A stretch of 64,000 bases of DNA from Candidatus Latescibacterota bacterium (GCA_965261395.1 OZ253462.1:1248001-1312000); one strand, 5' to 3'; positions 13,497 to 53,894 are shown, numbered from the stretch's first letter. Numbers and translations: made by a program. Notes: a model not told the origin generated them from the letters alone.

Positions 13497-13507
13497 TACC
13501 CGAGGAT

Positions 13508-32570: not shown

Positions 32571-34691
32571 TCAGTAGGCTATGGCGAAGGAGCCGATTTG
32601 GCGCTCTTGGTCTTTGGTCTCCAGCGTTAGTTCGTAGAGATAAGTGCCCGGCGGCAGGAGCTGTCCTTGTGCGTTGCGACCGTTCCACGCCTGCTCGAAC
32701 GCCCCGCTCTTGGCACTGGTCGCCGGCAAGATATGCACCACCCGACCCGCCAGATCATAGATCCGCAACGACACCGGCCGCGCCGTGGCCACCTCCCGCA
32801 GCTTATAGGAGAAGACTACTTTGTCGTTGACTCCATCGCCGTTGGGCGTGAAGACCCCCGGCCCGGCCTCCACCTGGATCAGCAGATCGCCCCCCAAAGG
32901 CGTCTTCACCGAGAGCGCGTCGCCTGAAAAGCGGAAGGTTGCGTTGCCCGGCTGGATCTGCTGCCGCACTTGGTCGGCATCGGCGCTATTGAACACCCAG
33001 CCCGAAAACTCCGTGCCGAAACGCAATACCGTCGCGTCGAAAACCACCTCAATCAGCTTGAAACTGTCCTCTTCGCCTACTAGTTGGGGGAAGCCGACGA
33101 TTAAGTGCTCATCCTCCATCTCCGGCGGAAAGAGAGCGAAATCCACCTCAACCCCATTTACCTTGAGCGATCGCACGGAATCGACGCGAGTGGGGGTGCG
33201 GATCTCCAGATGGTCGAAACCCACATCTCCCACCCCGAAGACGGGACGAGCGACATAGGTAAAGGTGGTCGGCGTGAAGTCCTCTACAATGATCGGCCAG
33301 ATCTCGCCGACCACCTCCTGCGCCGAAGGCACTTCGGCAAACTGCAAACTCACCTGTTCCAAGCGTGGAGCCGCGGTGAACGTCGAATAGAGCTTGATCT
33401 CCACTTGGATATACTGGCTCGGACCCGGCGACAATAGCGCCGTCCCGTCCGCCCAGGCTGCCGCCACCGTCCCCACGTCCCGCAGCCCCGATGCAAACTC
33501 ATACGGCGTTGACCAGAAACTCCAGTGCGCCGTGTCGTACACCGGGGCCAGCCGCGCGCCCACGTCGATCTTGAGATAGTCCTTCAACGCGATCTGGTCG
33601 AGGTCTCCGTTGGTGTTCTCGGCAAAGTAGAGGCTGGGGTTGGGTGTTTGTCCGGTTCGGGTACGGATCTCAATGCGGGTTCCTTCTGGCACGTCGGCGC
33701 TCCAGCGGATTTTGCCCCAGTTGATCGGCTGCCCAAAGTCGAGGATTTGCGTCAGGTAGGTGGTCTCCTCGACAAAGCCTTCTCCATACACCTCAAACTC
33801 TGCAATCTCCCACGTGCGTAAAGGAAATGGCTGCAGATTGAGATAGCGGATTGACTGGGTGGGGAAGCGCAGGTCGACCACCACATCCAAATTTTCGGTG
33901 GTGGTCTTGAGCACCTTGAGTTGGGGATCAGAAGGGCTTATCCAGTCGAGCCCTTGGCTCTCAGCGGCAAAATTGCAAGGTCCGGGAGCGAAGAGTCGGC
34001 TATTGTCGCCGATCCGCAGTTCGAACCAGCCCAAGAAATTCTCGGCGAAGCTGTCCTGGCCGAACGCTTCGAGCGCCGGTTTGGGCGCGGTGAACTCCTC
34101 GATCAGCAAGCGATCGTCCACCTGGCTCAGCCGAGGATAAAAGCGAATGCGGTTGACGGGGATGGCCCCACCAAAATCCATGGCCACCGACCTCGACCCA
34201 GGCAAGGCCCCCCAGCCATCGCCGAAGCCCGGCGGAAGGTTGGGGTCTTGGGCGAAGGGACGGAAGAAAGCCGTAGTCAAATCCCCGTCAAACATCTTGC
34301 GAATCGCCTTGGAGTCGTTACCCAACGTCGGACAGTAGATATTGTTGGAAGGTCCGGCATTGCCGCCGGTGTAGAAGAAGGGGATCTTTTCCTCCACGCT
34401 CTCCGGGTCAATCAGCGTTATATTGACATTCGAGTCGATAAAGCGGGATTGGATGGCATGGCCCGAAAAGTCGATCAACGTGTCTGTCCCCGCCCCATGC
34501 AGCGTCACCCCCACCTCCACTCGCTGCAGTTCCTGACCCTCCGCATCCAGCACCACATAGGCGCTACCCCCCTCCAGCGAAAGCGCCGTCGTCCAAGCAT
34601 TGCCGTCGGCCCCGCCTAGGCGATACTCCGTCACACCCCAAGCAGGGGAATAACCCAATAGCAAAACGACCAACAGCAATAATGGTTTCAT
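32571..34691 (-). CDS. Secreted protein, tandem paralog of 30390..32522 (copy A2)
   Basis: Same architecture, and the C-terminal ~400 aa are nearly identical to A1. Confidence 0.8.
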   Translation of the reverse strand: MKPLLLLVVLLLGYSPAWGVTEYRLGGADGNAWTTALSLEGGSAYVVLDAEGQELQRVEVGVTLHGAGTDTLIDFSGHAIQSRFIDSNVNITLIDPESVEEKIPFFYTGGNAGPSNNIYCPTLGNDSKAIRKMFDGDLTTAFFRPFAQDPNLPPGFGDGWGALPGSRSVAMDFGGAIPVNRIRFYPRLSQVDDRLLIEEFTAPKPALEAFGQDSFAENFLGWFELRIGDNSRLFAPGPCNFAAESQGLDWISPSDPQLKVLKTTTENLDVVVDLRFPTQSIRYLNLQPFPLRTWEIAEFEVYGEGFVEETTYLTQILDFGQPINWGKIRWSADVPEGTRIEIRTRTGQTPNPSLYFAENTNGDLDQIALKDYLKIDVGARLAPVYDTAHWSFWSTPYEFASGLRDVGTVAAAWADGTALLSPGPSQYIQVEIKLYSTFTAAPRLEQVSLQFAEVPSAQEVVGEIWPIIVEDFTPTTFTYVARPVFGVGDVGFDHLEIRTPTRVDSVRSLKVNGVEVDFALFPPEMEDEHLIVGFPQLVGEEDSFKLIEVVFDATVLRFGTEFSGWVFNSADADQVRQQIQPGNATFRFSGDALSVKTPLGGDLLIQVEAGPGVFTPNGDGVNDKVVFSYKLREVATARPVSLRIYDLAGRVVHILPATSAKSGAFEQAWNGRNAQGQLLPPGTYLYELTLETKDQERQIGSFAIAY

Positions 34692-34902: not shown

Positions 34903-37029
34903 ATGTTCGAATCCAGTCGTGTGCTGAGCCTGATCGTTGGTGTATCAAGTCTCACTTTCCTCTCTGCGGCCGGCACTGCGGCCCTAGAGTCGGTCGTGAT
35001 CGGCTGGGACGGCGATCTCGATTGGCAGGGTAGTGGTTCGGCTACCGTGGAGACCATCGACGCCGAATACCTCGCCCCACCCGATCCCAACAACCCCGGG
35101 GGCACTCCCCAATTGCTGATCGGTAATGCACCCGGCGATCTCGTCGAATTCGATAGTGCCGATTTTCCCAAAAGCCTGCTGCCCCAACTACTGGTCGAAT
35201 GTCCTGATGGCACCTGCCCCGAGGCCAATGTAGCCGCCGGCACGATCTCTCGGGGCGGACGCATCCGGATCCCTACCTTCTCCAGCTTCACACTCCAGTA
35301 CAAGTCGACCAATCTCAAGGAGAATTTGGAGGAGATGATAAACAGCAGGGCCGGAGGCGAGGAGGATGCGCTCGAACTCAAGAACTTCAACGCCTTTGGC
35401 CAGCTCCTCATTCTCGACATGGGTGCCCGCTTTCCCGTCAACCGCATCCGCTTCTATCCGCGCGATTCGGTCCAGAAATCGCCCGCTACGCCCTTCCAGA
35501 ACGACTTTCTAAGGGCCTACGAACTCTTTACCAACGACGGCCTCAATCTCACTAGGGAGGGGAACCAGATCTGGAATCCCTTGGTGCTCGAACGGGACAA
35601 CCGCCACCCCGTCGTCGATGTGCGGCTCGACCCACCGCGCTATGTCAGGTCCATACGCATGAAGTCGCTTACCCAATTCGATTGGGAGATCGACGAGTTC
35701 GAAGTCTATGGCCAGGGCTTCCTGCCCACAGCTTCCTATATATCCGACATATTCGACGCCGGCGGACCCGCCACTTGGATCAAGCTGCGTTGGGACGAGG
35801 AAATAGTGGGGGACCCGGACTTTTCCCAGATGCAGATCCGCACCCGGACCGGCATCGACGACTCGCCTTTCGTCTTTACCCGCACTCTGCGGGGCAAGCC
35901 CAACGCCGAAGAGATCCCCTTCTCCGTCGACGACCCGACCCAAGATATGACCCGCAGGGAGTTCGAGAGCCTGCCCAAGATCGATGCCGACGGCCGCGAA
36001 TGGGAACCCGCCTCAGTGCTGGATGACCTAGTGAACTGGAGCCCTTTCAGCACGCCCTTTGCCGCCAACGCTGCCAATGGCCCCGGCAGTCCCATCGTCT
36101 CGCCCAGCCCGCGGCGCTATTTCCAGTTCCAGGTGTTCTTCGATAGCAAATCCTTGGACGCCGCCCGCGTGCTGCGGTCCCTCGGTTTCGATTTCCTGGT
36201 CCCGCCGCTCGCCGACGAACTCATCGGCGAGATCTTTCCGCGCCGGGTCGAGCCGTCGACATCCGTTTCTTTTATCTACGCGGTGCGGCCCGTCATGCAT
36301 ACGACGGGTTTGCTGGGCTTCGACACCATTGAGATCTACACCCCGACCCAGGTCGAGAGCATCGACCGAATCGAGATCTTGGACGCGGAGGGTCAGATGG
36401 TCGCCAGCCGCGATTTCGCCGACCTGTCTGACAGGACCTTGGTCGACGATTTCCAGATCACTGCGGTGGCCAACGACCGCTTCTCGGTGCGTCTGCCCCT
36501 GATCCAGGAAGATGGTGCCCAGGCTCGCATCTTCTTCAGTACCAGCGTCCTCACCTATAGCACCAATTTTCCTTCTGCAGCCCTGATTTCCACCGAACCC
36601 GACGCCGCGCAGGGGATTACTTCGGGTGAGGTGGCCGTCCTTGGGGAGGACGACCGGCCCGATTTCTCCGGAATCACCGTGCTCAGCCCCAAAATCCAGG
36701 AAGGGAGCATCCTCGCTAAGGTCGAACTCGGCCCCAACCCCTTCACTCCCAACGGGGACGGCGTCAACGATGTGATCGGAGTGAACTACAGCTTGCTTTC
36801 CCTCAGCGTCCCCCGGCCTGTCTATATCGGCGTCTACGACCTCGCAGGCCGGAGCTTGCGCGTCTTGCACGAAGGCCCCGAACGCAATGGCCGCTACGAG
36901 GACAAGGGCTGGGATGGCCGCGACGACGCGGGCGCACTGGCCGCTCCCGGAATCTATATAGTGCGGATTGAAGTCGTGGGAGACGCCGAGACCGATGTGC
37001 AGTCTCGGGTCGTCGCGCTGGTCTACTGA
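34903..37029 (+). CDS. Secreted protein, diverged member of the same FlgD/CHU_C-tailed family
   Basis: LDMGARFPVNRIRFYPR, WEIDEFEVYG.GF, IRTRTG, SPSPRRYFQ, GEIFP and NPFTPNGDGVND. Confidence 0.8.
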   Translation: MFESSRVLSLIVGVSSLTFLSAAGTAALESVVIGWDGDLDWQGSGSATVETIDAEYLAPPDPNNPGGTPQLLIGNAPGDLVEFDSADFPKSLLPQLLVECPDGTCPEANVAAGTISRGGRIRIPTFSSFTLQYKSTNLKENLEEMINSRAGGEEDALELKNFNAFGQLLILDMGARFPVNRIRFYPRDSVQKSPATPFQNDFLRAYELFTNDGLNLTREGNQIWNPLVLERDNRHPVVDVRLDPPRYVRSIRMKSLTQFDWEIDEFEVYGQGFLPTASYISDIFDAGGPATWIKLRWDEEIVGDPDFSQMQIRTRTGIDDSPFVFTRTLRGKPNAEEIPFSVDDPTQDMTRREFESLPKIDADGREWEPASVLDDLVNWSPFSTPFAANAANGPGSPIVSPSPRRYFQFQVFFDSKSLDAARVLRSLGFDFLVPPLADELIGEIFPRRVEPSTSVSFIYAVRPVMHTTGLLGFDTIEIYTPTQVESIDRIEILDAEGQMVASRDFADLSDRTLVDDFQITAVANDRFSVRLPLIQEDGAQARIFFSTSVLTYSTNFPSAALISTEPDAAQGITSGEVAVLGEDDRPDFSGITVLSPKIQEGSILAKVELGPNPFTPNGDGVNDVIGVNYSLLSLSVPRPVYIGVYDLAGRSLRVLHEGPERNGRYEDKGWDGRDDAGALAAPGIYIVRIEVVGDAETDVQSRVVALVY

Positions 37030-37112: not shown

Positions 37113-39404
37113 TTACTCTTTCGCACCCATACCGCCGAAGATTTCCTCAACCTGCTGCCGCGCTTGCCGTTGCGCCTTGTGCTCAAGGCGCTTTTCCCGG
37201 TTAGCGCGGGCATAGCGCGCCATATGCTCTTGGGCCGCGGCTGCTTCTCCCGTGCGTTTATACAAGTTGGCTAAGCAAAAATGCGTCTGGATCATTTGCG
37301 GATCGAGTTCCAGAACCCGCCCAAAATGCTCGATAGCCTCCTCATAGCGACCTAGTTTAGCCAGCATCATGCCCAGCCCCCAGTGCCCAGCCACGTCGTC
37401 CGGCTCCAACTCGACCGCTTGGCGGTGATGGGCTTCGGCCTCACTGATTCGGGCATTCGGCTTTAGGGGAAGAGTCTGTTGCTGGGCTCCTTCATGCGCC
37501 ACCAGCAGATTCGCCAGACGGGTGTGTAGCTCCGCTCTCTCTGGCTCGTCGCTCAATAGCCGGCGGTACTCTCTGGTAGCCGCCAGACTGTCCTGCGTCT
37601 CGTAGAGACGGGCCAACTGGTAGCGCACCACGCTCGAGTCGGGGCGGATCTCTAGGGTGCGGCGATAGGCACTCGCCGCCAAGATGGGTTTTCCGGCCAT
37701 CAGATAGGCATAGCCGAGACGGCCGAAGAGGGCTGCCCAGTCGGGCCGCAGCGCAGTGAGGTTTTCGTACTGGACGATGGCCTCTGGGTAGCGTCGAGCC
37801 GCCAGAAAGGCATGGCCCAACAGGAAGCGGGCCGGGGTGGCCTCCGGATTCTTTTTTACGTAGGTGCTATAGGCCTCAATGGCCTTGGCATGCTCCTGCC
37901 TTTCCCCGTAGAGCGCGGCCAGCCGCAGGAGAGCTTCCCCGTGATCGGGCTGACGCTCAAGCGCGATGCGGAACTCGTGTAGGGCATCGGCCTGCATCCC
38001 CTTTCGCACATAGGCATCCCCTAGGGCAAAATGCTCTTCGGCGCTCCCTACCATGTTCATGGAACCGATGCCGGTATTGACCGCCAGCGTCAAGGCGACA
38101 AAGAGGGGCCAGAGAATGATCTTCCGACCCCTAGACCGAAACATTTCGCTCAGGCCAAAACCGGCGAGGAGCAGGGCGAAAGGCACCGCCGGCAGGCGAT
38201 AGCGCGAAGTGACGAAAAACAGGACGACCGAAAGCATGTAAACCAGTAGGAAAAGCGCAGGCAGAGTCGCGGCACCAGCATCGGACCGACGCCACAGACA
38301 GACTATGCCGATCAGCGCCAGGGGGGCGACCAGACCGAAGGGAAAGGCCAACCCGTACTTCCACAGCAGGAGGCGCAGCACAGTAGAATCGCGCCGGGCG
38401 TAATACGGGTCGAGGTTGCGCTGGATTTCATCGCCGCGCCAGAAGAGACGGAGCTTGTGGGCCAGCAAGCGCAGATAGCCCAAGGGATCTGCGCTGATAA
38501 ACTGCCAGGATTGGGCAAAAAAATAGTGCGACTTGGCGGATGGCCGTTCTATCCCCGCTTCGATTTCGGGTTTTTCTACCAGCAGGGCCCAATCCCTTCC
38601 CGGACGGATATTGACCGTGCGCTCGTAATCGGGGTTGTTGCCGATGTAGAAGTTAATACCGGCGTTGTGCGAGATCAGCACCCAGTCGCCGCCCACCAGA
38701 TGGTTGCGCACCGTCACTGGGGCTATGGCCAGAGCGCAGCCCAGGAGCAGCAAAGCAGTACGCTTCGCCTTGTCGGCGTTGGGAATGGAATCTTCCAAGC
38801 GCCAGAGCCACCATACCACGACTGGCAGGAAGAGCAGGATGTTGGCCACGGCCAGTGCGGCCAAACCCATCAGCGCCCCCGCTAGTAGCCAGCGCTTGGA
38901 GTCGCCGTAGGGTGGCCGGACCACCGAGAGAAAGAACAGCAGGTTGAGGAAAATCGCCAGGCCGACTGGCAGCAACTCACCATCGAAGTAAATGAGAGGT
39001 CCGCAACAGGCGGCACCCAGAGCGGCACCTAGGGCGATTCCGGGCGCGAAGAGCCGGCGTCCTATGATTAGGAGCAAGATGCAGCTTCCCGCCCCTAACA
39101 AGGCTTGAACTAGGCGCGGCCAGTAGTAATTCTCCCCCCCGACCCCAAAGATCAGCGCCAGAAAGTAGGGATAGAGCGGTGGCTGCCAGAAGGGCTCAGG
39201 TGCGTCTGCCCAAGCCCCGCCGGCTAGGTCGAGCGCCATCTCGGTGTAGACTCTGGCGTCGATTACCGGCGCGTCGAAAAAGGGACTCGCGGCGCTTTCG
39301 TGGATGTACAATACTCGCAGAGCCAGAGCTAGGCAGCCGATCAACAGCGCCTGGCTCCAAGGCTGCTGCAACCAGTTTGTCTCCCCGTCCTTATAGACCT
39401 GCAT
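37113..39404 (-). CDS. GT-C (PMT/ArnT-like) membrane glycosyltransferase with C-terminal TPRs
   Basis: Multi-TM N-terminus with DA..Y, PPLYPYFLA, GINFYIGNNP and RYRLP, followed by a TPR array. Confidence 0.8.
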   Translation of the reverse strand: MQVYKDGETNWLQQPWSQALLIGCLALALRVLYIHESAASPFFDAPVIDARVYTEMALDLAGGAWADAPEPFWQPPLYPYFLALIFGVGGENYYWPRLVQALLGAGSCILLLIIGRRLFAPGIALGAALGAACCGPLIYFDGELLPVGLAIFLNLLFFLSVVRPPYGDSKRWLLAGALMGLAALAVANILLFLPVVVWWLWRLEDSIPNADKAKRTALLLLGCALAIAPVTVRNHLVGGDWVLISHNAGINFYIGNNPDYERTVNIRPGRDWALLVEKPEIEAGIERPSAKSHYFFAQSWQFISADPLGYLRLLAHKLRLFWRGDEIQRNLDPYYARRDSTVLRLLLWKYGLAFPFGLVAPLALIGIVCLWRRSDAGAATLPALFLLVYMLSVVLFFVTSRYRLPAVPFALLLAGFGLSEMFRSRGRKIILWPLFVALTLAVNTGIGSMNMVGSAEEHFALGDAYVRKGMQADALHEFRIALERQPDHGEALLRLAALYGERQEHAKAIEAYSTYVKKNPEATPARFLLGHAFLAARRYPEAIVQYENLTALRPDWAALFGRLGYAYLMAGKPILAASAYRRTLEIRPDSSVVRYQLARLYETQDSLAATREYRRLLSDEPERAELHTRLANLLVAHEGAQQQTLPLKPNARISEAEAHHRQAVELEPDDVAGHWGLGMMLAKLGRYEEAIEHFGRVLELDPQMIQTHFCLANLYKRTGEAAAAQEHMARYARANREKRLEHKAQRQARQQVEEIFGGMGAKE

Positions 39405-42042
39405 AGAAGGTGAGAAAGCTCTGCGTAATTGTCTCCGATGCCTGTGTCTTGAAGTTCTTGCGGTCGATCTTCACTCCGCCTTGCATAGTGAGTTGATATC
39501 CTTGGTAGGCGGATACGTTGGTGAATTGGGCCGCCCAGGCGATGCCGTTGAAGTCGTTGGAGTCGCGCACGAAATCGTTGGAGAAGGTCAGCTCCAACCC
39601 CGACTGGAAGCGAGTGTGAGCGAGCAGCGGCACGCTCAAGATAAAGCCGCCGATCTCCGCCAATTCTTCCCTCTCCTCGTGCGAGAAAAGGTCGAATGTC
39701 TGCCTACGGTACTCGCTTTTCCAACGTGGCTCGATCTGCAGCGCACCTAGGTCGAAGCGATAACTGAACTTGTTGATCAGACCGATGAAATAGTCCTGCT
39801 TGCGTAGGCTCAAGAGCGTGCGCTGTTCCTTATCGATACGCTGGCGATAAAACTCGTATTTGAAGAAGTTCTTGGTCCTGAACCCTCCCTGTTGGTAATC
39901 GTGGCCCGCCCATAGCGAATTGACCCAAGTGTCGGGGGCGAGGAGTGGGTCTTCGATCAGGGTCCCCTCGCCGGTGCGCAAAAGTGCGCCTGGCAGCCAC
40001 TGCAGCAGGTTGTCGGGAATATTGTCTTGCACCGATTTGAACGAATCGAAGAGACGGAATCGGCCCCACTCCGGCGTATCCTTGTCCAGGGTGAAGAGCA
40101 GATACTTGGAGATATTCTCGCGGTCGGCCGAGATCAACTCCTCACGCATCAGGCCGGCCGTGACGCGGATCTCGGGCGTGACGTGGGCACCGGCGTAGAT
40201 GTTGAATCCGCGGTGGTCCTTGCGATAGGGGTAGTCCGGTTCTTCGTCGTTTTCGAAGCGGTCGATCCAGATATTGTTATTCATGTCGATGCCGAAGAGA
40301 AACTCCGGTCGGTCGACGTTGTGGCGCAGGAAAGCCTCTTCGTAGTCGGGGGTGGAATTGGTTAAGAGCCGGTTGTCGTTCTGGTTAAAGTCGGAGATGA
40401 AATCGTTGTTCTCGTCCCAACCGGGGAAGACTGCGTTGTCGCCGTTGCGCGTGTCCATGCGGATGGTGTCGGCGAAGCGATCTTGGTCGTCGTTGTCAGC
40501 GACGAATTCCACCACGTAAATCCGCTCGTCCTCGTAGTCGATAAAGCCACCGGCATCCGAGGTGAAGGTGCTGGTATTATAGCGCGGATCCATGCTGTAA
40601 GCCTCGCCAAAGAAGAACCAGGGATAGGTGGACTTTGAGAGGTTCATCATCCAGGCCGGGGCCGACCGCTGTCCCTTGATGCCCGACGAGGTCGAGTGGC
40701 TTTTGGCGTTGATGTTCGGGTACTTGGTGTAGCTGTAGCTCAGGTCGTACTCGCCGTAGAAGTCAAAGCCCTTCACATCTCTCACCTCCACGGTGCCGCC
40801 CCATATCTGGGTGGCGGTGGGCAAACCGTATTGGAAACTCACCGTCCTCAGGTTCGTGTTGTCTTGGATATTGCCCTCGGCTTGGGCTACTAGGAGCAAC
40901 ACCGAGGTGTTGCTGGTGTTCAGTTGTCGGTCCGAAGTCATCCAGATCTGGTAGTCGTTGGCCAGCACCATCTGGAATTCGATGTTCTCGATCTGCTCCT
41001 TGGAGCCGCTCGAGCGGTTGAGGAAGGCCGGGCTGTCGAAATCGTAGCGCAGGCGGATCTGCTCGGTGCCATCAGCGGCGATAAATCCCTCGCGGATAAA
41101 ACCGCCTTGGATGATTGGTTCGAAGCGGATCTCCTTTCCCCGGTCCACGGTGCCGTCTCTATAAGTGATGATGATATCTGACCCGGCGGGGAAGAAGGCT
41201 GCGCCGCCTACCCCATCCTCGGGGCTGTCGTCGCGCAGCACGACCTCAATCGCCGAGACCGTGGCCTTTTGGTCGAGGGTGAGTTCACCTTGGATAGGGT
41301 TGCCCCGAAACCCATCGACGAGCGTATTGGACTGGTGGGCGTTGACATTGGTGAGGCCCATGGTGACGAAGTCGCCGACCTGGACGGTCAAGCGCCCGCC
41401 GGCCAGAGTCGTCATATTGGTGACCAGATTCTCCTGGTCCCGGGTCGAACTGCCTCCCGGACGGCTCAGACGCGAGAAAATGACGGTCCCCTGGTACTTG
41501 TCGGAAGCGAAATCGACTTGCACTCCGTCCCAGCGCGGCTTGGAAAAGGTCATCGGCGTCAGCGTCGAACGAATCTCGTTGCTCACCGTTACCGCATAGT
41601 GGTATTGGCCCTTAGTGTCGACTGAGATGAGCAGCCCGGAGAACCACTCTTGGAAACGCGACGACTTGAAAATGGAACTACCAAACTGCGCGGGCTGGAC
41701 TTGGGAGGTGTTGAAGATCAGCCAGCCCCGGCCGATATAACTCCCGTACAAGTCGTAAAAGTAGTCCCCTTCTAGGGTCGTATTGACGTAGCGCTGGAAG
41801 TTTTGCCGGGCGTAGTTTGAATATTCCCACTGCTTCCAGCGGTACTCGTTATAGAGTTCCTGGGGCACATACCACCGACGCACCGCCGGGTCCAGCGCCC
41901 CGAACATCACGCCGGCCCCCTGGGGTTCGTAAGTGACCTCCCCACCCCGTTGCACACCCAGACGGTTGCCGTAGTCCTGAGCCTGTACGACAGATACTAG
42001 GAAAGAGCAACATATAACGCATAGCAGGCAAGCTCGTCTCAC
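39391..42042 (-). CDS. Large secreted or outer-membrane hypothetical protein
   Basis: Signal peptide, Asp-rich DND..D / DENND / DMNNN loops, and alternating beta-strand segments ending FLTFYAGL. Confidence 0.6.
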   Translation of the reverse strand: MRRACLLCVICCSFLVSVVQAQDYGNRLGVQRGGEVTYEPQGAGVMFGALDPAVRRWYVPQELYNEYRWKQWEYSNYARQNFQRYVNTTLEGDYFYDLYGSYIGRGWLIFNTSQVQPAQFGSSIFKSSRFQEWFSGLLISVDTKGQYHYAVTVSNEIRSTLTPMTFSKPRWDGVQVDFASDKYQGTVIFSRLSRPGGSSTRDQENLVTNMTTLAGGRLTVQVGDFVTMGLTNVNAHQSNTLVDGFRGNPIQGELTLDQKATVSAIEVVLRDDSPEDGVGGAAFFPAGSDIIITYRDGTVDRGKEIRFEPIIQGGFIREGFIAADGTEQIRLRYDFDSPAFLNRSSGSKEQIENIEFQMVLANDYQIWMTSDRQLNTSNTSVLLLVAQAEGNIQDNTNLRTVSFQYGLPTATQIWGGTVEVRDVKGFDFYGEYDLSYSYTKYPNINAKSHSTSSGIKGQRSAPAWMMNLSKSTYPWFFFGEAYSMDPRYNTSTFTSDAGGFIDYEDERIYVVEFVADNDDQDRFADTIRMDTRNGDNAVFPGWDENNDFISDFNQNDNRLLTNSTPDYEEAFLRHNVDRPEFLFGIDMNNNIWIDRFENDEEPDYPYRKDHRGFNIYAGAHVTPEIRVTAGLMREELISADRENISKYLLFTLDKDTPEWGRFRLFDSFKSVQDNIPDNLLQWLPGALLRTGEGTLIEDPLLAPDTWVNSLWAGHDYQQGGFRTKNFFKYEFYRQRIDKEQRTLLSLRKQDYFIGLINKFSYRFDLGALQIEPRWKSEYRRQTFDLFSHEEREELAEIGGFILSVPLLAHTRFQSGLELTFSNDFVRDSNDFNGIAWAAQFTNVSAYQGYQLTMQGGVKIDRKNFKTQASETITQSFLTFYAGL

Positions 42043-42061
42043 GAGGAAGGCTCCTTGTAAA

Positions 42062-45000
42062 TTAATAAGCTACATGTATCAATGTTGATCTCGTGGTGGG
42101 TCCGATGTCGTCGGCATCAACGGCGAGATCGACCTGCCCCAGATAGATCCCCGGCGGCACTCGTTGCCCTGTCTGATCTGTACCCGACCACACCACCGCC
42201 ACCTCACCACTGTGCACCGCCTGTCGGTGCTGCCACACCCGTCGGCCATCCAGCCGATACACATTCACCGTGGCCTGTCGCGTCGTCCCCAGTCGAAACA
42301 CCGAAAAGCCGATCGTCGTCTGGTCGTTGACCCCGTCGCCATTGGGCGTAAACGGGTTGGGATAGGCGGCAATCACGCCCAGCGGCTTTAGGTTCAAAGG
42401 CACCTGGATCGACAGCGCCTCCGACGCGACCTGCGCTGTCGCATCGCCGGCGGCCACTCCCTGCCAAGGCGCGTCTTGGGCGCTGCCCCCGGCCGTGTTG
42501 CGCACCGCTAGGTCCACCGTCGCTCCGTTGACGAACACCGGCGTAGCAAAACGCATCCGCAACAGCGGCCCTGCTCCCACGATCCGCCCCCGCCGCGCCG
42601 ACCCAAGCCCGTTGTAGGCTGCCGCGTCCAGTGAGTCGCCTGCGGCGTCAAAGGCAAATTGGCCTCCTTCGTCGAACAGGATGCGGAAGTAGCGATCCTC
42701 CCGCTCGTCCTCGGCCAACGCGTCGAACTCACTCTCATTGACTAGGGTTAGAGCCACCTCTCCGGTTGCCTCGACGGTGCGGCGGAAGTAGCGTCGGTCG
42801 CCCCGTTCCTCCGGTGCCAACTGGCCATAGCTCACCGCGGTCAATACCTGCCCCTGCCGGTCAATGGGCACCTGCTCCTGTTCGCTCATCACTTGGTAGT
42901 AGATCCGTTCATCGACCGTCCCCAGCGCATGCACTGCTGCAGGCAGGCGCACCCAGATCGAGTCCGACCGATCCTGCAACACTGTTAACAGCTGACCAGC
43001 TTCGTCAACAAACGACCCATCTGCCTGCGGACGAAAGACTTGGTCTTCGCCTAGGGCCAACTCCAACAGCGTCAGGTTCTCTGCCCCCGATAAGGTCAGT
43101 GCCACCTCGTCGAAACCGTCGCTGCGCACGCTGAAGGGCTGCTCGACGAAGAAGGGCTGGGCAAACACCTCAAACGTGTCGACCCGTCCGGGCACGGCCA
43201 CCTCGACCGGCCACAACTCAGCCTGCATCTGTTCCACCACCGGATTCAACAGTTCGATCTCAATGGCACCAATCGACGCGGCTTGGAAGCGATCTTGGGT
43301 GCGCAGTGCCACTTGCAGTTGCAGAAGACCGTGTTGCGCTGGCGCATTGACCCGGGTGCCTGGCTGCCGATAGCTGCGGCTCCAGTTGCTCCAGTCGCTG
43401 CCAGCGACAAAGGCGGTGTCGACGGGACCTTTGAAGCTGCCCATGAGATTGTTCCACTGTTTCTGGGTGATCTCGCTGCCGGACTTGTCGAAGTGGCGCA
43501 CGACCTTGCGCAGCAGACTGCCGGTGCGGCTGCGGAGGTCTAGTTCGGTGCCCGGCGGCGTTTCCCCTTCCCAGAAGATTCGTCCCAAGCTGCGTCCTGC
43601 TGGCAAGGCCATCAGGGCCGAGTGCAGCACCACCTCCGACGGGTAGCCCGCCGAAAATAGCTGGTACTCTGCGATTTTGGGACCCGGCGCATAGATGTCC
43701 AGGCTCTGGTCAATGATAGTGATCTCGATATAGCGAAGCTTTTGCGGCGAAGCGAAATTTTCGAGCAGATGCCGGAATCGGCTAATACTATTGTTTTCGC
43801 GCTCCAGCGAAGTCAGCCGCTTCCATTTGAGCCGACCATTGGTATCCCGCGTACCATCCGAGCCCAGCATCTTATAGCCCTCGACAATAGGCCAGGAAAA
43901 GGGAGCCGAGGTCCGCACCGCGTCGAGCCAGAAGGTCGCGCCCATGTCGATGGTCAACACCCCCCGATCCACGATCGCCGTCTTCTCGCGAAAGGGATGC
44001 ACGAAATTGGTGGCGTAATCCCCGTCGAAACCAGCCCCCGGACTGAAGCCATCCCCCGTCAAAGCTAGGCTGCCGCCACCGTCCAGCATTCTCGCAGTGA
44101 TATTGTCGCCATAGCCCCAGACTTCGATATCGGCCAGCCGGGGCCGCTCGCGGCGATAGTACTCCTTCCGACCCTGACGCGCCGCTGGCAAACCCTCATA
44201 CACCGAACGATCCACCGGCTCCTCGAAACCCTCCCGAACCTTGACGAAATGGACGATTTCGCCTTGGTCTGCTGTGGGCAACGCCTCCCACTCCGCCGCA
44301 GTCACCAGCCGACCCCGCGCGCCCTTGCTTTCCGTCACCACCACCCGCAAGGTCTCCACCATCCGACCCGTCCACTCCGGCGACGCCCGCGGCTGCGCAA
44401 AACCAAAACCGAAAAGCCGCTGATCCTCATTGGGGGCCGTCGTCCGCGCCACCAACTCAAACCCCACCTTCGCCACCTCCTCCATCACCGGCTTCTGATT
44501 CGGTGCCACCAACAGCCGAAACTGGCGAAACGGATCCCCCAGCGACGCCTCGACAAAGTGCAACACCACCGAATCCACCACCGCCACCCGACCCAGATCC
44601 ACCTCCACCCACCAGTCGTCCAAAGGTGCCGCCGCATCCGGCTCCCAATACGTCGTCGGATCTCCGTCCAGAATCGCCGCCGCATCCGCCCCATTCGAGC
44701 CCACTCGACTGATCCCCATCCGCATCAGATAGGTATAGACCGGCACATTCTTCCCGCTTTTCTTCTGCGTCAGCACATTGCCGCGGATATCCAGTGTTAG
44801 GGTGCTGTCCAGATTCAGAATTGCCGTTTGCGTCCGGCCCCGCTTGAAGTCCTTCAAGGCCCGTTGGAACGTCGCTCGATCATCCAGCAGGCTATAGCGG
44901 CCACGAAAGCGATGCGGCACTACCACTCCCGTCGGCTCTACCTCCACCGCGTGTGTCGGCAGGGTCCATGCCCGCCAGTGCGCCGCGGTCTCCACCACCA

Positions 45001-45130
45001 GCCGATCCTCGCTGAGCCGATAGCCCGCTCCCTCTTGCGCAATCGCGCCACTGCCTGCCACAAGCAATCCTATGGCCCATAAAAAGAAACAGCCGCGACC
45101 CAAACGGGAACCTAAAACCGTGCCCTTCAT
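42062..45130 (-). CDS. Secreted protein, two discoidin-like domains plus FlgD/CHU_C tail (copy B1)
   Basis: ILDGDPTTYW..EVDLGR, FDGD.AT.F..IDMGATFWLD..IAEYQLF and YPNPFTPNGDGVND. Confidence 0.8.
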   Translation of the reverse strand: MKGTVLGSRLGRGCFFLWAIGLLVAGSGAIAQEGAGYRLSEDRLVVETAAHWRAWTLPTHAVEVEPTGVVVPHRFRGRYSLLDDRATFQRALKDFKRGRTQTAILNLDSTLTLDIRGNVLTQKKSGKNVPVYTYLMRMGISRVGSNGADAAAILDGDPTTYWEPDAAAPLDDWWVEVDLGRVAVVDSVVLHFVEASLGDPFRQFRLLVAPNQKPVMEEVAKVGFELVARTTAPNEDQRLFGFGFAQPRASPEWTGRMVETLRVVVTESKGARGRLVTAAEWEALPTADQGEIVHFVKVREGFEEPVDRSVYEGLPAARQGRKEYYRRERPRLADIEVWGYGDNITARMLDGGGSLALTGDGFSPGAGFDGDYATNFVHPFREKTAIVDRGVLTIDMGATFWLDAVRTSAPFSWPIVEGYKMLGSDGTRDTNGRLKWKRLTSLERENNSISRFRHLLENFASPQKLRYIEITIIDQSLDIYAPGPKIAEYQLFSAGYPSEVVLHSALMALPAGRSLGRIFWEGETPPGTELDLRSRTGSLLRKVVRHFDKSGSEITQKQWNNLMGSFKGPVDTAFVAGSDWSNWSRSYRQPGTRVNAPAQHGLLQLQVALRTQDRFQAASIGAIEIELLNPVVEQMQAELWPVEVAVPGRVDTFEVFAQPFFVEQPFSVRSDGFDEVALTLSGAENLTLLELALGEDQVFRPQADGSFVDEAGQLLTVLQDRSDSIWVRLPAAVHALGTVDERIYYQVMSEQEQVPIDRQGQVLTAVSYGQLAPEERGDRRYFRRTVEATGEVALTLVNESEFDALAEDEREDRYFRILFDEGGQFAFDAAGDSLDAAAYNGLGSARRGRIVGAGPLLRMRFATPVFVNGATVDLAVRNTAGGSAQDAPWQGVAAGDATAQVASEALSIQVPLNLKPLGVIAAYPNPFTPNGDGVNDQTTIGFSVFRLGTTRQATVNVYRLDGRRVWQHRQAVHSGEVAVVWSGTDQTGQRVPPGIYLGQVDLAVDADDIGPTTRSTLIHVAY

Positions 45131-45237
45131 GGCTTCCTCTAATCGGGAGTCGGCAAACTATGACTATATCTGCAAAACCCAATCTGGTCGGCGACCGCTG
45201 GGCGATCTTACAGACACAATCCAATATTTACCGGCTC

Positions 45238-48200
45238 TCAATAAGCTACGTGTAGCAATGTTGATCTCGTGGTGGGTCCGATGTCGTCGGCATCAACGGC
45301 GAGATCGACCTGCCCCAGATAGATCCCCGGCGGCACCCGTTGCCCCGCCTGATCCGTACCTGACCACACCACCGCTACCTCACCGCTTTGCACTACCTGT
45401 CGATGCTGCCACACCCGTTGACCGTCCAGCCGATACACATTCACCGTGGCCTGTCGCGTCGTCCCCAGTCGAAACACCGAAAAGCCGATCGTCGTCTGGT
45501 CGTTGACCCCGTCGCCATTGGGCGTAAACGGGTTGGGATAGGCGGCAATCACGCCCAGCGGCTTTAGGTTCAAAGGCACCTGGATCGACAGCGCCTCCGA
45601 CGCGACCTGCGCTGTCGCATCGCCGGCGGCCACTCCCTGCCAAGGCGCGTCTTGGGTGCTGCCCCCGGCCGTGTTGCGCACCGTCAGGTCCACCGTCGCT
45701 CCGTTGACGAACACCGGCGTAGCAAAACGCATCCGCAACAGCGGCCCTGCTCCCACGATCCGCCCCCGCCGCGCCGACCCAAGCCCGTTGTAGGCTGCCG
45801 CGTCCAGTGAGTCGCCTGCGGCATCAAAGGCAAATTGGCCTCCTTCGTCGAACAGGATGCGGAAGTAGCGATCCTCCCGCTCGTCCTCGGCCAACGCGTC
45901 GAACTCACTCTCATTGACCAGGGTTAGAGCCACCTTTCCGGTTGCCTCGGCGGTGCGGCGGAAGTAGCGTCGGTCGCCCCGTTCCTCCGGTGCCAACTGG
46001 CCATAGCTCACCGCGGTCAATACCTGCCCCTGCCGGTCAATGGGCACCTGCTCCTGTTCGCCCATTACTTGGTAGTAGATCCGTTCATCGACCGTCCCCA
46101 GCGCATGCACTGCCGCAGGCAGGCGCACCCAGATCGAGTCCGACCGATCCTGCAACACTGTTAATAGCTGACCAGCTTCGTCAACAAACGACCCATCTGC
46201 CTGCGGACGAAAGACTTGGTTTTCGCCTAGGGCCAACTCCAACAGCGTCAGGTTCTCTGCCCCCGACAAGGCTAGTGCCACCTCGTCGAAACCGTCGCTG
46301 CGCACGCTGAAAGGCTGCTCGACGAAGAAGGGCTGGGCGAACACCTCAAAGGTGTCGACCCGCCCCGGCACCGCTATCTCGATCGGCCACAACTCAGCCT
46401 GCATCTGTTCCACCACCGGATTCAACAGCTCGATCTCAATGGCACCGATTGACGCAGCTTGGAAGCGGTCTTGGGTGCGCAGTGCCACTTGCAGTTGCAG
46501 AAGACCGTGTTGCGCTGGCGCATTGACCCGGGTGCCTGGCTGCCGATAGCTGCGGCTCCAGTTGCTCCAGTCGCTGCCAGCGACAAAGGCGGTGTCGACG
46601 GGACCTTTGAAGCTGCCCATGAGATTGTTCCACTGTTTCTGGGTGATCTCGCTGCCGGACTTGTCGAAGTGGCGCACGACCTTGCGCAGCAGACTGCCGG
46701 TGCGGCTGCGGAGGTCTAGTTCGGTGCCCGGCGGCGTTTCTCCTTCCCAGAAGATTCGTCCCAAGCTGCGTCCTGCTGGCAAGGCCATCAGGGCCGAGTG
46801 CAGCACCACCTCCGACGGGTAGCCCGCCGAAAATAGCTGGTACTCCGCGACATTAGGCCCGATGCACCACATACAGAGATCACCGGCATTGGGATTGGTA
46901 ATGGTAATCTCGATATAGCGAAGCTTTTGCGGCGAAACAAATTTTTCGAGCAGGTGTTCGAAGAGATTATCGCGGTTGTTTTCGCGCGCCACTGATGTCA
47001 GCCGCTCCCACTTGAGCTGGCCATTGGTATCCCGCGTGCCATCCGAGCCCAGAATCTTATAGCCGTCGATAAAGGTCCTGGGCAAGGTCGAGGACGTCCG
47101 CACCGCGTCGAGCCAGAAGGTCGCGCCCATGTCGATGGTCAATACCCCCCGATCCACGATCGCCGTCTTCTCGCGGACCACGTGCGGAAAGGAGGTGGAA
47201 AAGTCGCCATCGAACGCCCCAACCGGACTGAAACCATCCCCGGTCAAAGCGAGGTTGCCGCCACCTTCCACCATGCCCATACTGATATTGTCGCCGTAGC
47301 CCCAGACTTCGATATCGGCCAGCCGGGGCCGCTCGCGGCGATAGTACTCCTTCCGACCCTGACGCGCCGCTGGCAAACCCTCATACACCGAACGATCCAC
47401 CGGCTCCTCGAAACCCTCTTCGTCGACGATAAAGTGGACGATTTCGCCTTGGTCTGCTGCGGGCAACGCCTCCCACTCCGCCGCAGTCACCAGCCGACCC
47501 CGCGCGCCCTTGCTTTCCGTCACCACCACCCGCAAGGTCTCCACCATCCGACCCGTCCACTCCGGCGACGCCCGCGGCTGCGCAAAACCAAAACCGAAAA
47601 GCCGCTGATCCTCATTGGGGGCCGTCGTCCGCGCCACCAACTCAAACCCCACCTTCGCCACCTCCTCCATCACCGGCTTCTGATTCGGTGCCACCAACAG
47701 CCGAAACTGGCGAAACGGATCCCCCAGCGACGCCTCGACAAAGTGCAACACCACCGAATCCACCACCGCCACCCGACCCAGATCCACCTCCACCCACCAG
47801 TCGTCCAAAGGCGCCGCCGCATCCGGCTCCCAATACGTCGTCGGATCTCCGTCCAGAATCGCCGCCGCATCCGCCCCATTCGAGCCCACTCGACTGATCC
47901 CCATCCGCATCAGATAGGTATAGACCGGCACATTCTTCCCGCTTTTCTTTTGCGTCAGCACATTGCCGCGGATGTCCAGCGTTAGGGTGCTGTCCAGATT
48001 CAGAATCGCCGTTTGCGTCCGGCCCCGCTTGAAGTCCTTCAAGGCCCGTTGGAACGTCGCCCGATCATTCAGCAGGTTGTAGCGACTGCGAAAGCGATGC
48101 GGCACTACCACTCCCGTCGGCTCTACCTCCACCGCGTGTGTCGGCAAGGTCCATGCCCGCCAGTGCGCCGCGGTCTCCACCACCAGCCGATCCTCGCTGA

Positions 48201-48315
48201 GCCGATAGCCCGCTCCCTCTTGCGCAATCGCGCCACTGCTTATCACAAGCAATCCTATGGCCCACAAAAAGAAACAGCCGCGACCCAAACGGGAACCCAA
48301 AATCAGACCTCTCAT
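45238..48315 (-). CDS. Secreted protein, tandem paralog of 42062..45130 (copy B2)
   Basis: Near-identical to B1 except in the second discoidin-like domain. Confidence 0.8.
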   Translation of the reverse strand: MRGLILGSRLGRGCFFLWAIGLLVISSGAIAQEGAGYRLSEDRLVVETAAHWRAWTLPTHAVEVEPTGVVVPHRFRSRYNLLNDRATFQRALKDFKRGRTQTAILNLDSTLTLDIRGNVLTQKKSGKNVPVYTYLMRMGISRVGSNGADAAAILDGDPTTYWEPDAAAPLDDWWVEVDLGRVAVVDSVVLHFVEASLGDPFRQFRLLVAPNQKPVMEEVAKVGFELVARTTAPNEDQRLFGFGFAQPRASPEWTGRMVETLRVVVTESKGARGRLVTAAEWEALPAADQGEIVHFIVDEEGFEEPVDRSVYEGLPAARQGRKEYYRRERPRLADIEVWGYGDNISMGMVEGGGNLALTGDGFSPVGAFDGDFSTSFPHVVREKTAIVDRGVLTIDMGATFWLDAVRTSSTLPRTFIDGYKILGSDGTRDTNGQLKWERLTSVARENNRDNLFEHLLEKFVSPQKLRYIEITITNPNAGDLCMWCIGPNVAEYQLFSAGYPSEVVLHSALMALPAGRSLGRIFWEGETPPGTELDLRSRTGSLLRKVVRHFDKSGSEITQKQWNNLMGSFKGPVDTAFVAGSDWSNWSRSYRQPGTRVNAPAQHGLLQLQVALRTQDRFQAASIGAIEIELLNPVVEQMQAELWPIEIAVPGRVDTFEVFAQPFFVEQPFSVRSDGFDEVALALSGAENLTLLELALGENQVFRPQADGSFVDEAGQLLTVLQDRSDSIWVRLPAAVHALGTVDERIYYQVMGEQEQVPIDRQGQVLTAVSYGQLAPEERGDRRYFRRTAEATGKVALTLVNESEFDALAEDEREDRYFRILFDEGGQFAFDAAGDSLDAAAYNGLGSARRGRIVGAGPLLRMRFATPVFVNGATVDLTVRNTAGGSTQDAPWQGVAAGDATAQVASEALSIQVPLNLKPLGVIAAYPNPFTPNGDGVNDQTTIGFSVFRLGTTRQATVNVYRLDGQRVWQHRQVVQSGEVAVVWSGTDQAGQRVPPGIYLGQVDLAVDADDIGPTTRSTLLHVAY

Positions 48316-50600
48316 GGTTTACTCCTCGCGATTTCGTAGTCCGTGTTGCCTTCGGTCAGGCGGATGACGCTATTGGCGGGAATATGCTCCCAACTCTGAC
48401 GGTGCCCGCTGGGCCAGCGGATCTCTAGGCGGTCGACCATTTCTTTGTCGCCTAGTCCTAGATGCAGTGCTGGGGCGTTGCTCGAACCAAAGCCGTAACC
48501 GCTGGACACCTCGGCATGTACCTGATGATCGCCGCTATGTAGGGACACGCGGGCCCCAATACCGTCTCGATTGCTCTCGGTCCCTCTGGTTATCACTGCC
48601 AGGAAGTGGCCGTTTTCACCGTCGTTGCGATACAGACTATTGGGCCATACGTCCCCGTCATAATGGCCCCCCAACCCGGCGTAGAGATCCATATCGCCGT
48701 CGCCGTCGAAATCGGCGAACGTGGCACCGTGCCCCTTGCCCAGATTGCCCACCCCAGCCTCTGCGGTGATATCCGCAAAAGTTCCGTCGCCCCGATTGAG
48801 CAAGAGGGTATTGGGTTCAAGGCGGTACATCTCCGGACCGCCATTGGCTAGATAAATATCGGCGAAACCATCATTGTCGATATCGCTCACGCCGATGCCC
48901 ATCGTACTAAAGGAACGGCCTAGGCCAGCCTCGACCGTCGCATCGGTAAAGGTGCCGTCACCGTTATTGCGGTAGAGGAAGGGCCGATTGAGTTGGTTAT
49001 TCTGTCCCTCGACCATACTGTTGAGCATCCCTTCGAGGCTACTCATCGTCGCGACAAAAAGATCTAGGGCCCCGTCATTATCGTAGTCGAAGAAAAACGC
49101 GACGTACCCCCCTTCGAGGGGAAAAAGCACGTCGGCTTGTGCCGCCCGGTCGGTGAAGGTTCCGTCGCCATCATTGTGGTAGAGCCGATTGGGCTGGCCG
49201 ATATTCACCGCATAGAGATCCGGATAACCATCGCCGTCGTAGTCTCCAAAGGCGCAGCCGATAGTCTTACCCGGATCGGCGACTCCGGCACTTGCAGCCA
49301 CGTCAGCAAAGACACCGTTTTGGCTATTGCGATACAGGTTGTTATTTCCCCCGTCCCCCAAAACCCCGTTGGCCACATAGAGGTCGAGGTAGCCGTCTAG
49401 GTCGTAGTCGCCCCAGGTCGCGGTAAAACTGCAAGCTAAATCGACCATCCCCACCTGCAAGGCGACGTCGACATACTCGCCTTGGTCATTGCGGTAGAGA
49501 GAATTGGCTGCCTTGCCCTCCCAGGCGTCCCGCGTGACGAAAAGATCCGCGTCTCCGTCATTGTCGAAATCGGCACGGGCAGCACCCCACCCCCCTCGCA
49601 CGTCGGCCAACCCCGTCGTCTCTGTCACCGCGTGGAAACGCCCGTCCCCGTCGTTGCGGTAAAGTGCGTGCAAAGTTCGGATCCCTACCGAAAATAGGTC
49701 TGGATCCCCGTCGAGGTCGTAATCGAGCCAAGCGCTGCCCCGGCCTCGGTCGATTTTGTCCACCCCGGCTGAGGGGGCAATATCGGCGAAGCGGACCGAC
49801 GTGGAAGCGGGCACGGATTCGCGGGCCACAAGTCGATAACGGTCCGGCAAACTCGTAGGATAACCCTCCCAATAGACCAGTTTGATCAGCCAGAGTGCCT
49901 TCAGACGTTCCGCGTACTGGTCCAGCGACAGATTCACCGCTCGCTGCAGAAACGGCATAGCCGCTGGCCCATCGCCCTTCCACAAGGCGGCAGTACCTGC
50001 CAACAGAGTAAGCGTATAGCTCTCGGGATACTGCTGTGTTAGTTGCCGGCCCAATTCCAGTGCCTGCTCGAACCGCCCCAATCTCAACTCGGCTTTAAGC
50101 AGCATCAGCGCGGCGCGGCTTTCTTGGGGTACCGCGTGCAAGATTTCCCGGCACAACTTGCGAGTCTGTTCCAGATCCATGGCAAAGTCAGCGCGCAAAC
50201 CTAGCTGTGCCAACAACAGCTTGGCGTCAATGGAGCGAGGATGGCTTTTTAGAACCTCTTCGGCCAGCGTTCGGGCCTCGGCAATTCGTCGCTCCGAACT
50301 CAGCAACCGGGCATGCAGAATCTGGATTTCGGGACGCTCTAAGTCCTCTCCGGCTATTGTTTTTAGCATCTGCATGGTAGCTTCCCTCTGGTCCATCGCC
50401 AAATAGATCTCGCACAACCTCACTTGGGCTACGGTACTGTCGGGTGCTAGGCGCAAACAGCGCTGAAAATGCTCGGCGGCTTCTTTCCACTGCCCGGCCC
50501 GAAAAAATTCCATGCCCTCGCTATAGAGCTTATCCGCCTCTTTGGGGGGACTGCCGCAGCCGACCCCCAACACCGCCCAGAACACGATCCAAGGTATCAC
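48312..50600 (-). CDS. TPR + FG-GAP/VCBS repeat + ASPIC/UnbV protein (CRTAC1-like lipoprotein)
   Basis: Lipobox GVGC, TPRs, repeated DYDxDGxxDLY and LYRNxGDGTF, plus SNRDGIGARV..LHLGLG..IRWPSG. Confidence 0.9.
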   Translation of the reverse strand: MIPWIVFWAVLGVGCGSPPKEADKLYSEGMEFFRAGQWKEAAEHFQRCLRLAPDSTVAQVRLCEIYLAMDQREATMQMLKTIAGEDLERPEIQILHARLLSSERRIAEARTLAEEVLKSHPRSIDAKLLLAQLGLRADFAMDLEQTRKLCREILHAVPQESRAALMLLKAELRLGRFEQALELGRQLTQQYPESYTLTLLAGTAALWKGDGPAAMPFLQRAVNLSLDQYAERLKALWLIKLVYWEGYPTSLPDRYRLVARESVPASTSVRFADIAPSAGVDKIDRGRGSAWLDYDLDGDPDLFSVGIRTLHALYRNDGDGRFHAVTETTGLADVRGGWGAARADFDNDGDADLFVTRDAWEGKAANSLYRNDQGEYVDVALQVGMVDLACSFTATWGDYDLDGYLDLYVANGVLGDGGNNNLYRNSQNGVFADVAASAGVADPGKTIGCAFGDYDGDGYPDLYAVNIGQPNRLYHNDGDGTFTDRAAQADVLFPLEGGYVAFFFDYDNDGALDLFVATMSSLEGMLNSMVEGQNNQLNRPFLYRNNGDGTFTDATVEAGLGRSFSTMGIGVSDIDNDGFADIYLANGGPEMYRLEPNTLLLNRGDGTFADITAEAGVGNLGKGHGATFADFDGDGDMDLYAGLGGHYDGDVWPNSLYRNDGENGHFLAVITRGTESNRDGIGARVSLHSGDHQVHAEVSSGYGFGSSNAPALHLGLGDKEMVDRLEIRWPSGHRQSWEHIPANSVIRLTEGNTDYEIARSKP

Positions 50601-53731: not shown

Positions 53732-53810
53732 TAACAAGACCCTCTTCACAGACGAGAAATAGAATCGGGCAAGGACGGGCACTGCACGAGTCGCGGCCTC
53801 GGGACAATAG

Positions 53811-53857: not shown

Positions 53858-53894
53858 GAAACTACTGCTGGGAACGATCGGTCTCCAGATTCGC

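Follow-up and report, generated by a model that had tools for sequence, protein, structure and literature searches.

Here we investigated B1 and B2, a tandem pair of genes in a stretch of DNA from a Candidatus Latescibacterota bacterium (GCA_965261395.1, OZ253462.1:1248001-1312000). The whole stretch of 64,000 nucleotides (nt) is called the window below, and positions are counted from its first letter. The two encoded proteins are nearly identical over most of their length and differ mainly in one domain, the second of two tandem discoidin-like domains. We think it likely, at a probability of roughly 0.6, that B1 and B2 are old tandem paralogs that share one scaffold through gene conversion but retain two binding specificities under selection. 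What is unusual about the pair is the homogeneity of its scaffold, not the variability of its domain.

B1 (42062..45130, minus strand) encodes 1022 amino acids (aa) and B2 (45238..48315, minus strand) encodes 1025 aa. They lie head-to-tail in a minus-strand gene cluster that spans 26-55 kb of the window. An earlier note, made from the sequence of the window, had described two near-identical genes of ~1020 aa with a repeat unit of ~3.18 kb, and this was borne out: both open reading frames (ORFs) were found, the units are spaced 3176-3185 nt apart, and all of the quoted peptides are present. The proteins are 92.5% identical overall and 97% identical in the scaffold alone. At the DNA level, homology of 93.9% covers the ORF and 9 nt upstream only (45139..42064 versus 48324..45240). 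The spacer between B2 and B1 (45131..45237, minus strand) has ~98 nt of unique sequence homologous to neither flank, both outer flanks are also unique, and the start codon of B2 overlaps the stop codon of the FG-GAP gene lying upstream of it. A scan for promoters and terminators from 41800 to 48600 found 0 terminators and one promoter-like site, within B1, which is below the shuffled mean of 1.4; the scan is uninformative on separate expression of B1. Neither Rfam families nor ARAGORN tRNAs were found in the window (0 each).

B1 is built from a signal peptide, also present in B2, a tandem discoidin/CBM32 pair, a chain of beta-sandwiches, and a C-terminal CHU_C/FlgD-Ig-like domain (42125..42364, minus strand; aa 923-1002). 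The C-terminal domain matches Pfam PF13585 with 32.2 bits in B1 and 32.5 bits in B2 against a cutoff of 27. The first discoidin (F5/8 type C) domain of B1 (44126..44728, minus strand; ~aa 135-335) belongs to PF00754, which scores 40.1 and 44.3 bits in B1 and B2 (aa 145-212), over the 28.2-bit cutoff. The sole relevant match of a whole-protein profile search of the PDB is FlgD at the C-terminus (E 0.006). A full-length AlphaFold model, built from a 73-sequence alignment, is almost entirely beta, with a mean predicted local distance difference test score (pLDDT) of 86.6 and a predicted template modelling score (pTM) of 0.75. Its Foldseek matches include neuropilin b1b2 (2qqj/4qdr, TMt 0.47-0.49), factor Va, CBM32 pairs, macroglobulin-domain chains, and PorU. 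B1 and B2 are lectin-like secreted proteins, probably located at the cell surface.

The differences between B1 and B2 are concentrated in the second domain, about where the earlier note had put them. This variable block spans 43655..44101 in B1 (minus strand; aa 344-492) and 46831..47286 in B2 (minus strand; aa 344-495). It makes up 146 of the 1022 aligned columns and contains 47 of the 74 substitutions (binomial p 3.8e-22), as well as the sole indel, of 3 aa. The type-specific segments of the B1 block are aa 365-380, 409-415, 448-458, and 473-485. Minor patches of difference occur at aa 2-6, 76-85, 294-299, and 961-993. The first discoidin domain had been called invariant, which holds overall, but the six residues at aa 294-299 differ and had been overlooked. 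This patch is basic in B1 (FVKVRE; 44234..44251, minus strand) and acidic in B2 (FIVDEE; 47419..47436, minus strand), lies at a strand end and the following turn in the model, and changes in step with the second-domain type in every close relative examined. In L005, a fragment from another Latescibacterota metagenome-assembled genome (MAG), it reads YVKVRE, which is the type-1 form. The pattern of residues suggests that the patch contacts, or forms part of, the binding surface.

The variable block and the scaffold have also diverged to very different extents at synonymous sites. Synonymous divergence (dS; Nei-Gojobori) is 0.64 in the block versus 0.081 in the scaffold (Fisher p 4e-18). The earlier note had named congruent trees with similar dS in the two parts as an outcome that would tell against it, and we found dS values about 8-fold apart. 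The ratio of nonsynonymous divergence (dN) to dS is 0.31 in the block versus 0.20 in the scaffold, so replacement changes in the block are not in excess. Even within the block the contrast is local, as 35 of 53 synonymous sites are changed in the four type-specific segments versus 10 of 52 in the interleaved framework (p 1.5e-6). Counted per 50 codons, dS is 0-0.30 across the scaffold and 0.42-0.90 across the block. Furthermore, the scaffold contains long tracts without any difference, the longest being 351 nt (44276..44626, minus strand; aa 169-285), with two more that measure 272 nt (43284-43555) and 232 nt (42240-42471). With the 84 scaffold differences placed over 2621 nt in simulation, the 95th percentile for the longest tract was 217 nt, and the Monte Carlo p for a tract of 351 nt was 0.00045.

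Next, we compared B1 and B2 with their relatives. A word-indexed search returned 238 matches, with the listed organism names leading to Candidatus Latescibacteria, and the family comprises 1677 representative clusters at E<=0.001, or 212 with the threshold tightened to E<=1e-30. The only name found among 120 homologs listed is "hypothetical protein." In the 19 closest sequences, which we used for the analysis of types and trees, the second domain falls into three discrete types. Type 1 is found in B1, P0003, P0005, P0007, and L005, and partly in P0006 and P0009; type 2 in B2, P0004, P0008, P0010-13, P0017, P0018, and L001; and type 3 in P0014, P0015, and P0026. All members of type 2 carry a conserved C-x2-C in the last loop (aa 477-481 of B2, ~46873-46887). 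The second domain of B2 has no cysteine outside this motif and that of B1 has none at all. Its two cysteines might form a disulfide within the loop or bind a metal.

Domain type and scaffold lineage do not follow each other. B1 and B2 are 68% identical in the domain and 97% in the scaffold, and the same holds for P0005 and P0008 (71% and 95%) and for P0013 and P0014 (69% and 93%). The relation is reversed between lineages, with 92% in the domain and 87% in the scaffold for B1 and P0005, and 94% and 86% for B2 and P0008. The domain tree is sorted by type and the scaffold tree by lineage. Approximately unbiased (AU) tests reject a type-1 clade for the scaffold (p 5e-57) and, for the domain, the lineage clade of B1, B2, P0003, and P0004 (7e-5), the clade of P0005, P0006, and P0008 (2e-7), and the clade of P0013 and P0014 (3e-5). 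Because we named these groups with the alignment already in view, the p-values carry less formal weight, but the effect size is unaffected. The conflict between the trees of domain and scaffold that the earlier note had proposed to look for is thus present.

The second-domain loops are strongly conserved among proteins of one type. They are 92-99% identical across lineages whose scaffolds are 83-87% identical. In a survey of the surrounding gene cluster, for which window proteins were searched by tblastn against 80 loci kept of 111, we extracted 76 B proteins, and their loops are near-invariant within each orthologous group. The comparison with L005, a type-1 fragment covering aa 254-746 on a 1482-nt contig, contrasts loops and scaffold at the DNA level. 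Between B1 and L005, the loops have a dN of 0.041 at a dS of 1.47, and the scaffold has a dN of 0.10 at a dS of 0.66-1.27; no part of the protein is thus under tighter constraint within a type than the loops. The loop dS between B1 and B2 is 1.44, comparable with the value for B1 and L005, so the two types separated no later than the lineages of B1 and L005. One relative, P0006, is a natural chimera in which loop 1 is identical to that of the type-2 protein of its own lineage (P0008), and loops 2-4 and the patch are identical to those of type 1 (P0005). Exchange between types therefore does happen, with breakpoints in the framework. As a side observation, the MAG that contains L005 (and L009) has its type-1 B gene known only as a contig of ~1.5 kb across the variable domain; the contig could be short because of low coverage or because the assembly breaks at repeated scaffold.

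We also examined the fold of the second domain. In a search with PF00754, the second domain of B2 reaches 19.6 bits (E 0.001) over profile positions 14-124 of 127, under the cutoff, and that of B1 has no match; at E<=0.1, the profile matches the second domain in 2 of 35 family members. Alignment of domain 1 with domain 2 in hhalign gave an E of 4.8e-4 and a probability of 32%, and a PDB profile search with the second domain alone returned a single chance match (E 1.4). A model of the second domain alone (pLDDT 68.1, pTM 0.69) has 82 Foldseek matches at E<=0.001, led by CBM32 and discoidin structures. The best of these are 2w1u, 4a42, 2v72, and 5y4m, with E values of 1.3e-5 to 3.7e-5 and template modelling (TM) scores of 0.46-0.72. 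In the full-length model, 10-residue blocks of the domain have pLDDT values of 68-96. In a language-model Atlas, F5/8 type C clusters (0.92-0.93) are the best set, with 16 of 30 matches. At the level of the modelled fold, the second domain is a CBM32/discoidin beta-sandwich. The term "discoidin-like" in the earlier note is thus right by fold (Foldseek E 1.3e-5) and weak by sequence, where PF00754 stays below its cutoff.

We defined type-discriminating positions as those at which type 1 and close type 2 sequences share no residue. There are 40 in the 1022 aa, and all of them lie at aa 296-299, 365-380, 409-415, 433-443, 448-458, and 473-485. The domain contains 36 of these positions, and in the full-length model 31 of the 36 do not fall on beta-strands (Fisher p 2e-5); they occupy four inter-strand segments that are 27-41 residues apart. 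CBM32 modules bind ligand via loops at the edge of the sandwich, as described in PMC3313936. Since the type-specific residues are loop residues of a CBM32-type fold, and such modules bind ligand by their loops, it is reasonable to regard the second domain as a specificity module, as the earlier note had done.

The same design is repeated in a second gene pair of the window, A1 (30390..32522, minus strand; 710 aa) and A2 (32571..34691, minus strand; 706 aa), so the earlier note was also correct that constant and variable parts occur in two subfamilies. A1 is a distant paralog of the B proteins, with which it shares the middle and C-terminal domains, and A2 is its tandem paralog. A third member of the family, A3 (34903..37029, plus strand; 708 aa), is 30% identical to A1 and A2, and its position is kept in related clusters. 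A1 and A2 are 82% identical overall, with 98% in the constant parts and 55% in the variable region (aa 85-260). Their dS is 0.70 for aa 1-300 and 0.59 for aa 501-570, versus 0.23 and 0.09 elsewhere. Among 22 homologs, the region aa 85-260 occurs as two types, alpha (in A1) and beta (in A2), which are 55% identical between and 72-99% within types. Identity of the constant parts is 91-100% inside each of five lineage groups but drops to 69-87% from one group to another, and AU tests of the variable region reject lineage groups (1e-79 and 3e-9). For two alpha/beta pairs of relatives, the longest contig listed is equal (53298 and 13104), which hints that each pair is on one contig. Pfam has no match at E<=10 for the variable regions of A1, A2, and A3; motifs judged by eye alone would make these regions discoidin-like. 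We think it likely that A1 and A2 are likewise an old paralog pair whose scaffold was homogenised by conversion. Since pair A behaves like pair B, both recognition subunits of the cluster are doubled in the window lineage. Separately, the 516-aa entry P0284 is 90% identical over 73% of A1 and is probably a shorter gene call of A2 in the genome of the window itself, so the start of A2 may be annotated differently elsewhere.

These data bear two marks of concerted evolution. In both B and A, scaffolds are alike within a lineage and domains group by paralog type; in B1 and B2, identical tracts are longer than expected and dS is heterogeneous. In our proposed mechanism, the tandem copies would repeatedly recombine with each other within the genome, by gene conversion or unequal exchange, and so keep the scaffold (~2.6 kb) homogeneous. 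Convertants in which the loops are overwritten would be eliminated by selection, because the cell gains from having two ligand specificities. In addition, conversion tracts would spread less far because the DNA encoding the loops is so divergent. The loops would be the ligand-binding face, as in CBM32, with which B1 and B2 would recognise two ligands, most likely glycans, on a shared scaffold, and this common scaffold would plug into one conserved nine-gene surface cluster.

Several points weigh against this reading. The tandem itself is known from one assembly. No tandem of two B genes was found in the 80 loci (0/80; L034 is one gene split over two hits), and for B it is from the window that types 1 and 2 are known together in one genome and in tandem. 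The matching sizes of clusters P0003 and P0004 (25 and 25) are a hint that the two types share genomes elsewhere. Similarly, no two adjacent A-type genes were found in the loci where the region is visible. The doubling of both B and A being absent from the surveyed loci, it is specific to the narrow lineage of the window. The duplication cannot be dated since the loop dS is saturated. Additionally, we infer from the model that the four loops and the patch at aa 296-299 form one face, and confidence in the loops is moderate in places, with a full-model pLDDT of 68 at aa 381-390 and 74 at aa 471-480. Discoidin folds bind proteins and lipids too, besides glycans. Lastly, the same mosaic would result if a diverged domain had been imported after a recent duplication, or if two alleles of a trans-specific polymorphism had been captured in tandem.

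These last two histories form the strongest rival, which we consider unlikely but plausible. A recent tandem duplication, as the scaffold dS of ~0.08 would indicate, would have been followed by replacement of one second domain from a diverged donor, which could be a paralog at another locus of the genome or an allele that another strain carries as part of an old balanced polymorphism. In a variant of this history, unequal crossover between chromosomes with different alleles would have set both alleles side by side. In favour of this rival, no tandem occurs in the 80 surveyed loci, and the borders of the mosaic are sharp and lie in conserved framework. Type-2 loops are also common to single-copy genes just 64% identical overall (L001, P0010-12), the P0006 chimera shows that short segments move between types, and ordinary recombination among the alleles of one species would likewise group scaffolds by lineage. 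However, this history needs independent events in at least 3 B and 5 A lineage groups, yielding the same types each time. The equal longest contigs in the two alpha/beta pairs fit conserved linkage instead, and the range of scaffold dS together with the over-long identical tracts fits repeated conversion better.

It is very improbable that the tandem is an assembly artefact in which two strain variants of one gene were placed side by side. In favour of an artefact, the scaffolds are nearly identical, the sequence is probably metagenome-assembled, and the relatives are single-copy. However, a domain dS of 0.64 with saturated loops is far above strain variation, and the unique spacer between the copies and the unique outer flanks do not fit a misjoin. 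Both forms are also known as distinct 90%-identity clusters, P0003 and P0004, with 25 member sequences each, and the window contains a second, unrelated pair (A) built alike. Assemblers usually collapse or break at such repeats rather than write a tandem.

Least probable of all, to the point of being scarcely credible, is active diversification of the second-domain loops by a diversity-generating retroelement, targeted hypermutation, or cassette or inversion switching, although variability is restricted to the surface loops of a ligand-binding fold, loop synonymous sites are saturated, and one natural chimera exists (P0006), since the loops are so strongly conserved within types and orthologous groups. 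We rejected a retroelement target because there is no reverse transcriptase (none in Pfam scans of 41 window ORFs) and no template repeat, the substitutions cover all 12 classes (C/T 31, G/A 19, C/G 20, and others) without adenine bias, and the indel is of 3 codons. Between 26000 and 55000, we found no template or third repeat copy, each repeat family having two copies, and 0 inverted repeat pairs of >=40 nt; with neither inverted repeats nor a silent cassette in this region, a shufflon-like invertible or cassette switch was rejected as well. Targeted hypermutation was rejected on the 12 substitution classes and the within-type loop dN of 0.04. The general diversification system that the earlier note had built around the specificity module is therefore not supported: types are few and old (three in B, two in A), their loops are conserved, and no machinery was found.

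B1 and B2 belong to a cluster with a conserved gene order: a 305-aa protein, a SurA-like peptidyl-prolyl isomerase (PPIase), a TPR protein, an FG-GAP/ASPIC protein, B, U883, a PMT-like/TPR protein, A3, and A. The 80 loci are from MAGs labelled Latescibacterota and, in some cases, Gemmatimonadetes or Gemmatimonadota. Single chromosomes or contigs hold 2-5 of the kept cluster loci (for example, L019, L052, L054, L066, and L076 on OZ244561.1), and the domain-2 loops are conserved within, and particular to, each orthologous cluster group. In the window, the upstream genes, all on the minus strand, encode the 305-aa protein (53895-54812), for which no family is named, the SurA-like PPIase (52082-53956), the TPR protein (50597-52075), and a TPR+FG-GAP/ASPIC protein (48312-50600). 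Downstream are U883 (39391..42042, minus strand), an 883-aa protein with a signal peptide, and a conserved membrane protein with a PMT_2-like N-terminus and TPR (37113..39404, minus strand). U883 is the best conserved member of the cluster, with 55-80% identity across loci, and has no Pfam, NCBIfam, or PDB match. In the Atlas it falls among unnamed clusters, the nearest named one being DUF6029, a TonB-like barrel (0.89), which is a lead only; from its sequence, our guess is that U883 may be an outer-membrane beta-barrel.

A broader idea, which we regard as a speculative long shot, is that the nine-gene cluster is an undescribed outer-membrane surface apparatus of Latescibacterota with A and B as exchangeable recognition subunits, the loops of which are mixed by short-tract conversion. 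If true, the range of most genomes would be broadened through extra copies of the entire cluster, whereas the window lineage would double only the two recognition genes. Short-tract conversion, as in P0006, would then recombine loops and be a slow, recombination-based source of new specificities.

Elsewhere in the window, positions 12000-19000 form a low-GC island (0.43-0.53 versus ~0.60), which is a candidate mobile defence island. It contains an IS4/5 DDE transposase (13882-14688, minus strand) and an 844-aa fusion of TIR (ThsB-like, PADLOC E 2.6e-25), TPR, and a C-terminus resembling type IIG restriction-modification and TaqI_C proteins (14827-17361, plus strand). Overlapping the fusion gene is one for a 476-aa SMC_N/AAA ATPase with an AriA/GajA/PtuA-like N-terminus (17358-18788, plus strand). 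The window also encodes a DUF4874/DUF4832 protein (27166-28584, minus strand), adjoining a family-5 solute-binding protein, and a DUF6785/DUF6784 membrane protein (58411-60375, plus strand).

Among known systems, the C-termini of B1, B2, A1, and A2 invite comparison with type B (CHU_C) cargo of the type IX secretion system (T9SS), as they match PF13585 above its cutoff, with 44 bits in A1 and A2. The NCBIfam model TIGR04131 scores 31.6 in A1 against a cutoff of 35 and does not match B, and some A homologs are named "gliding motility-associated C-terminal domain" in public records. No T9SS machinery (PorU/V, SprA, and others) was seen within the 64-kb window. Our search for literature on Latescibacteria or Latescibacterota with discoidin or T9SS found none; the part of PMC4454575 at hand mentions pili, flagella, and attachment to algal detritus and does not mention the nine-gene cluster.

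In fold, the closest known proteins are CBM32/discoidin modules, which the second domain matches in Foldseek with E values of 1.3e-5 to 5e-4 and TM scores of 0.4-0.6. The tandem discoidin pair is shared with neuropilin b1b2, factor V C1C2, and CBM32-1/2 of Clostridium perfringens ZmpB. Unlike CBM32 proteins, B1 and B2 have no catalytic module, their second domain is below the Pfam cutoff, and the rest of the ~1020-aa protein belongs to an otherwise undescribed family. The pair resembles the targets of diversity-generating retroelements in that variability is focused on the binding loops of a stable scaffold, but the variants are few, old, and conserved, and there is no reverse transcriptase, template repeat, or adenine-specific change.

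In behaviour, the closest described analogue is the BabA/BabB(/BabC) adhesins of Helicobacter pylori, where gene conversion between copies makes chimeras (PMC4552749). The bab genes are at separate loci and phase-variable via CT repeats, whereas B1 and B2 are in tandem and no phase-variation repeat was seen. Also unlike BabA/BabB, B1 and B2 are soluble multidomain proteins that end in a CHU_C-like tail, and they diverge in a domain of CBM32 fold. To our knowledge, no relation in sequence or fold between BabA/BabB and B1/B2 is to be expected. The evolutionary pattern is thus already known, and it is the protein family and the phylum-wide nine-gene surface cluster that are uncharacterised. About 40 residues, in four loops and a patch, are likely specificity determinants of a large uncharacterised family in an uncultured phylum, and B1 and B2, with their 97% identical scaffolds, are a natural near-identical pair suited to comparative binding work. 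Together with A1 and A2, they would offer a clean bacterial case from a non-pathogen of concerted evolution with a protected binding site, twice in one operon.

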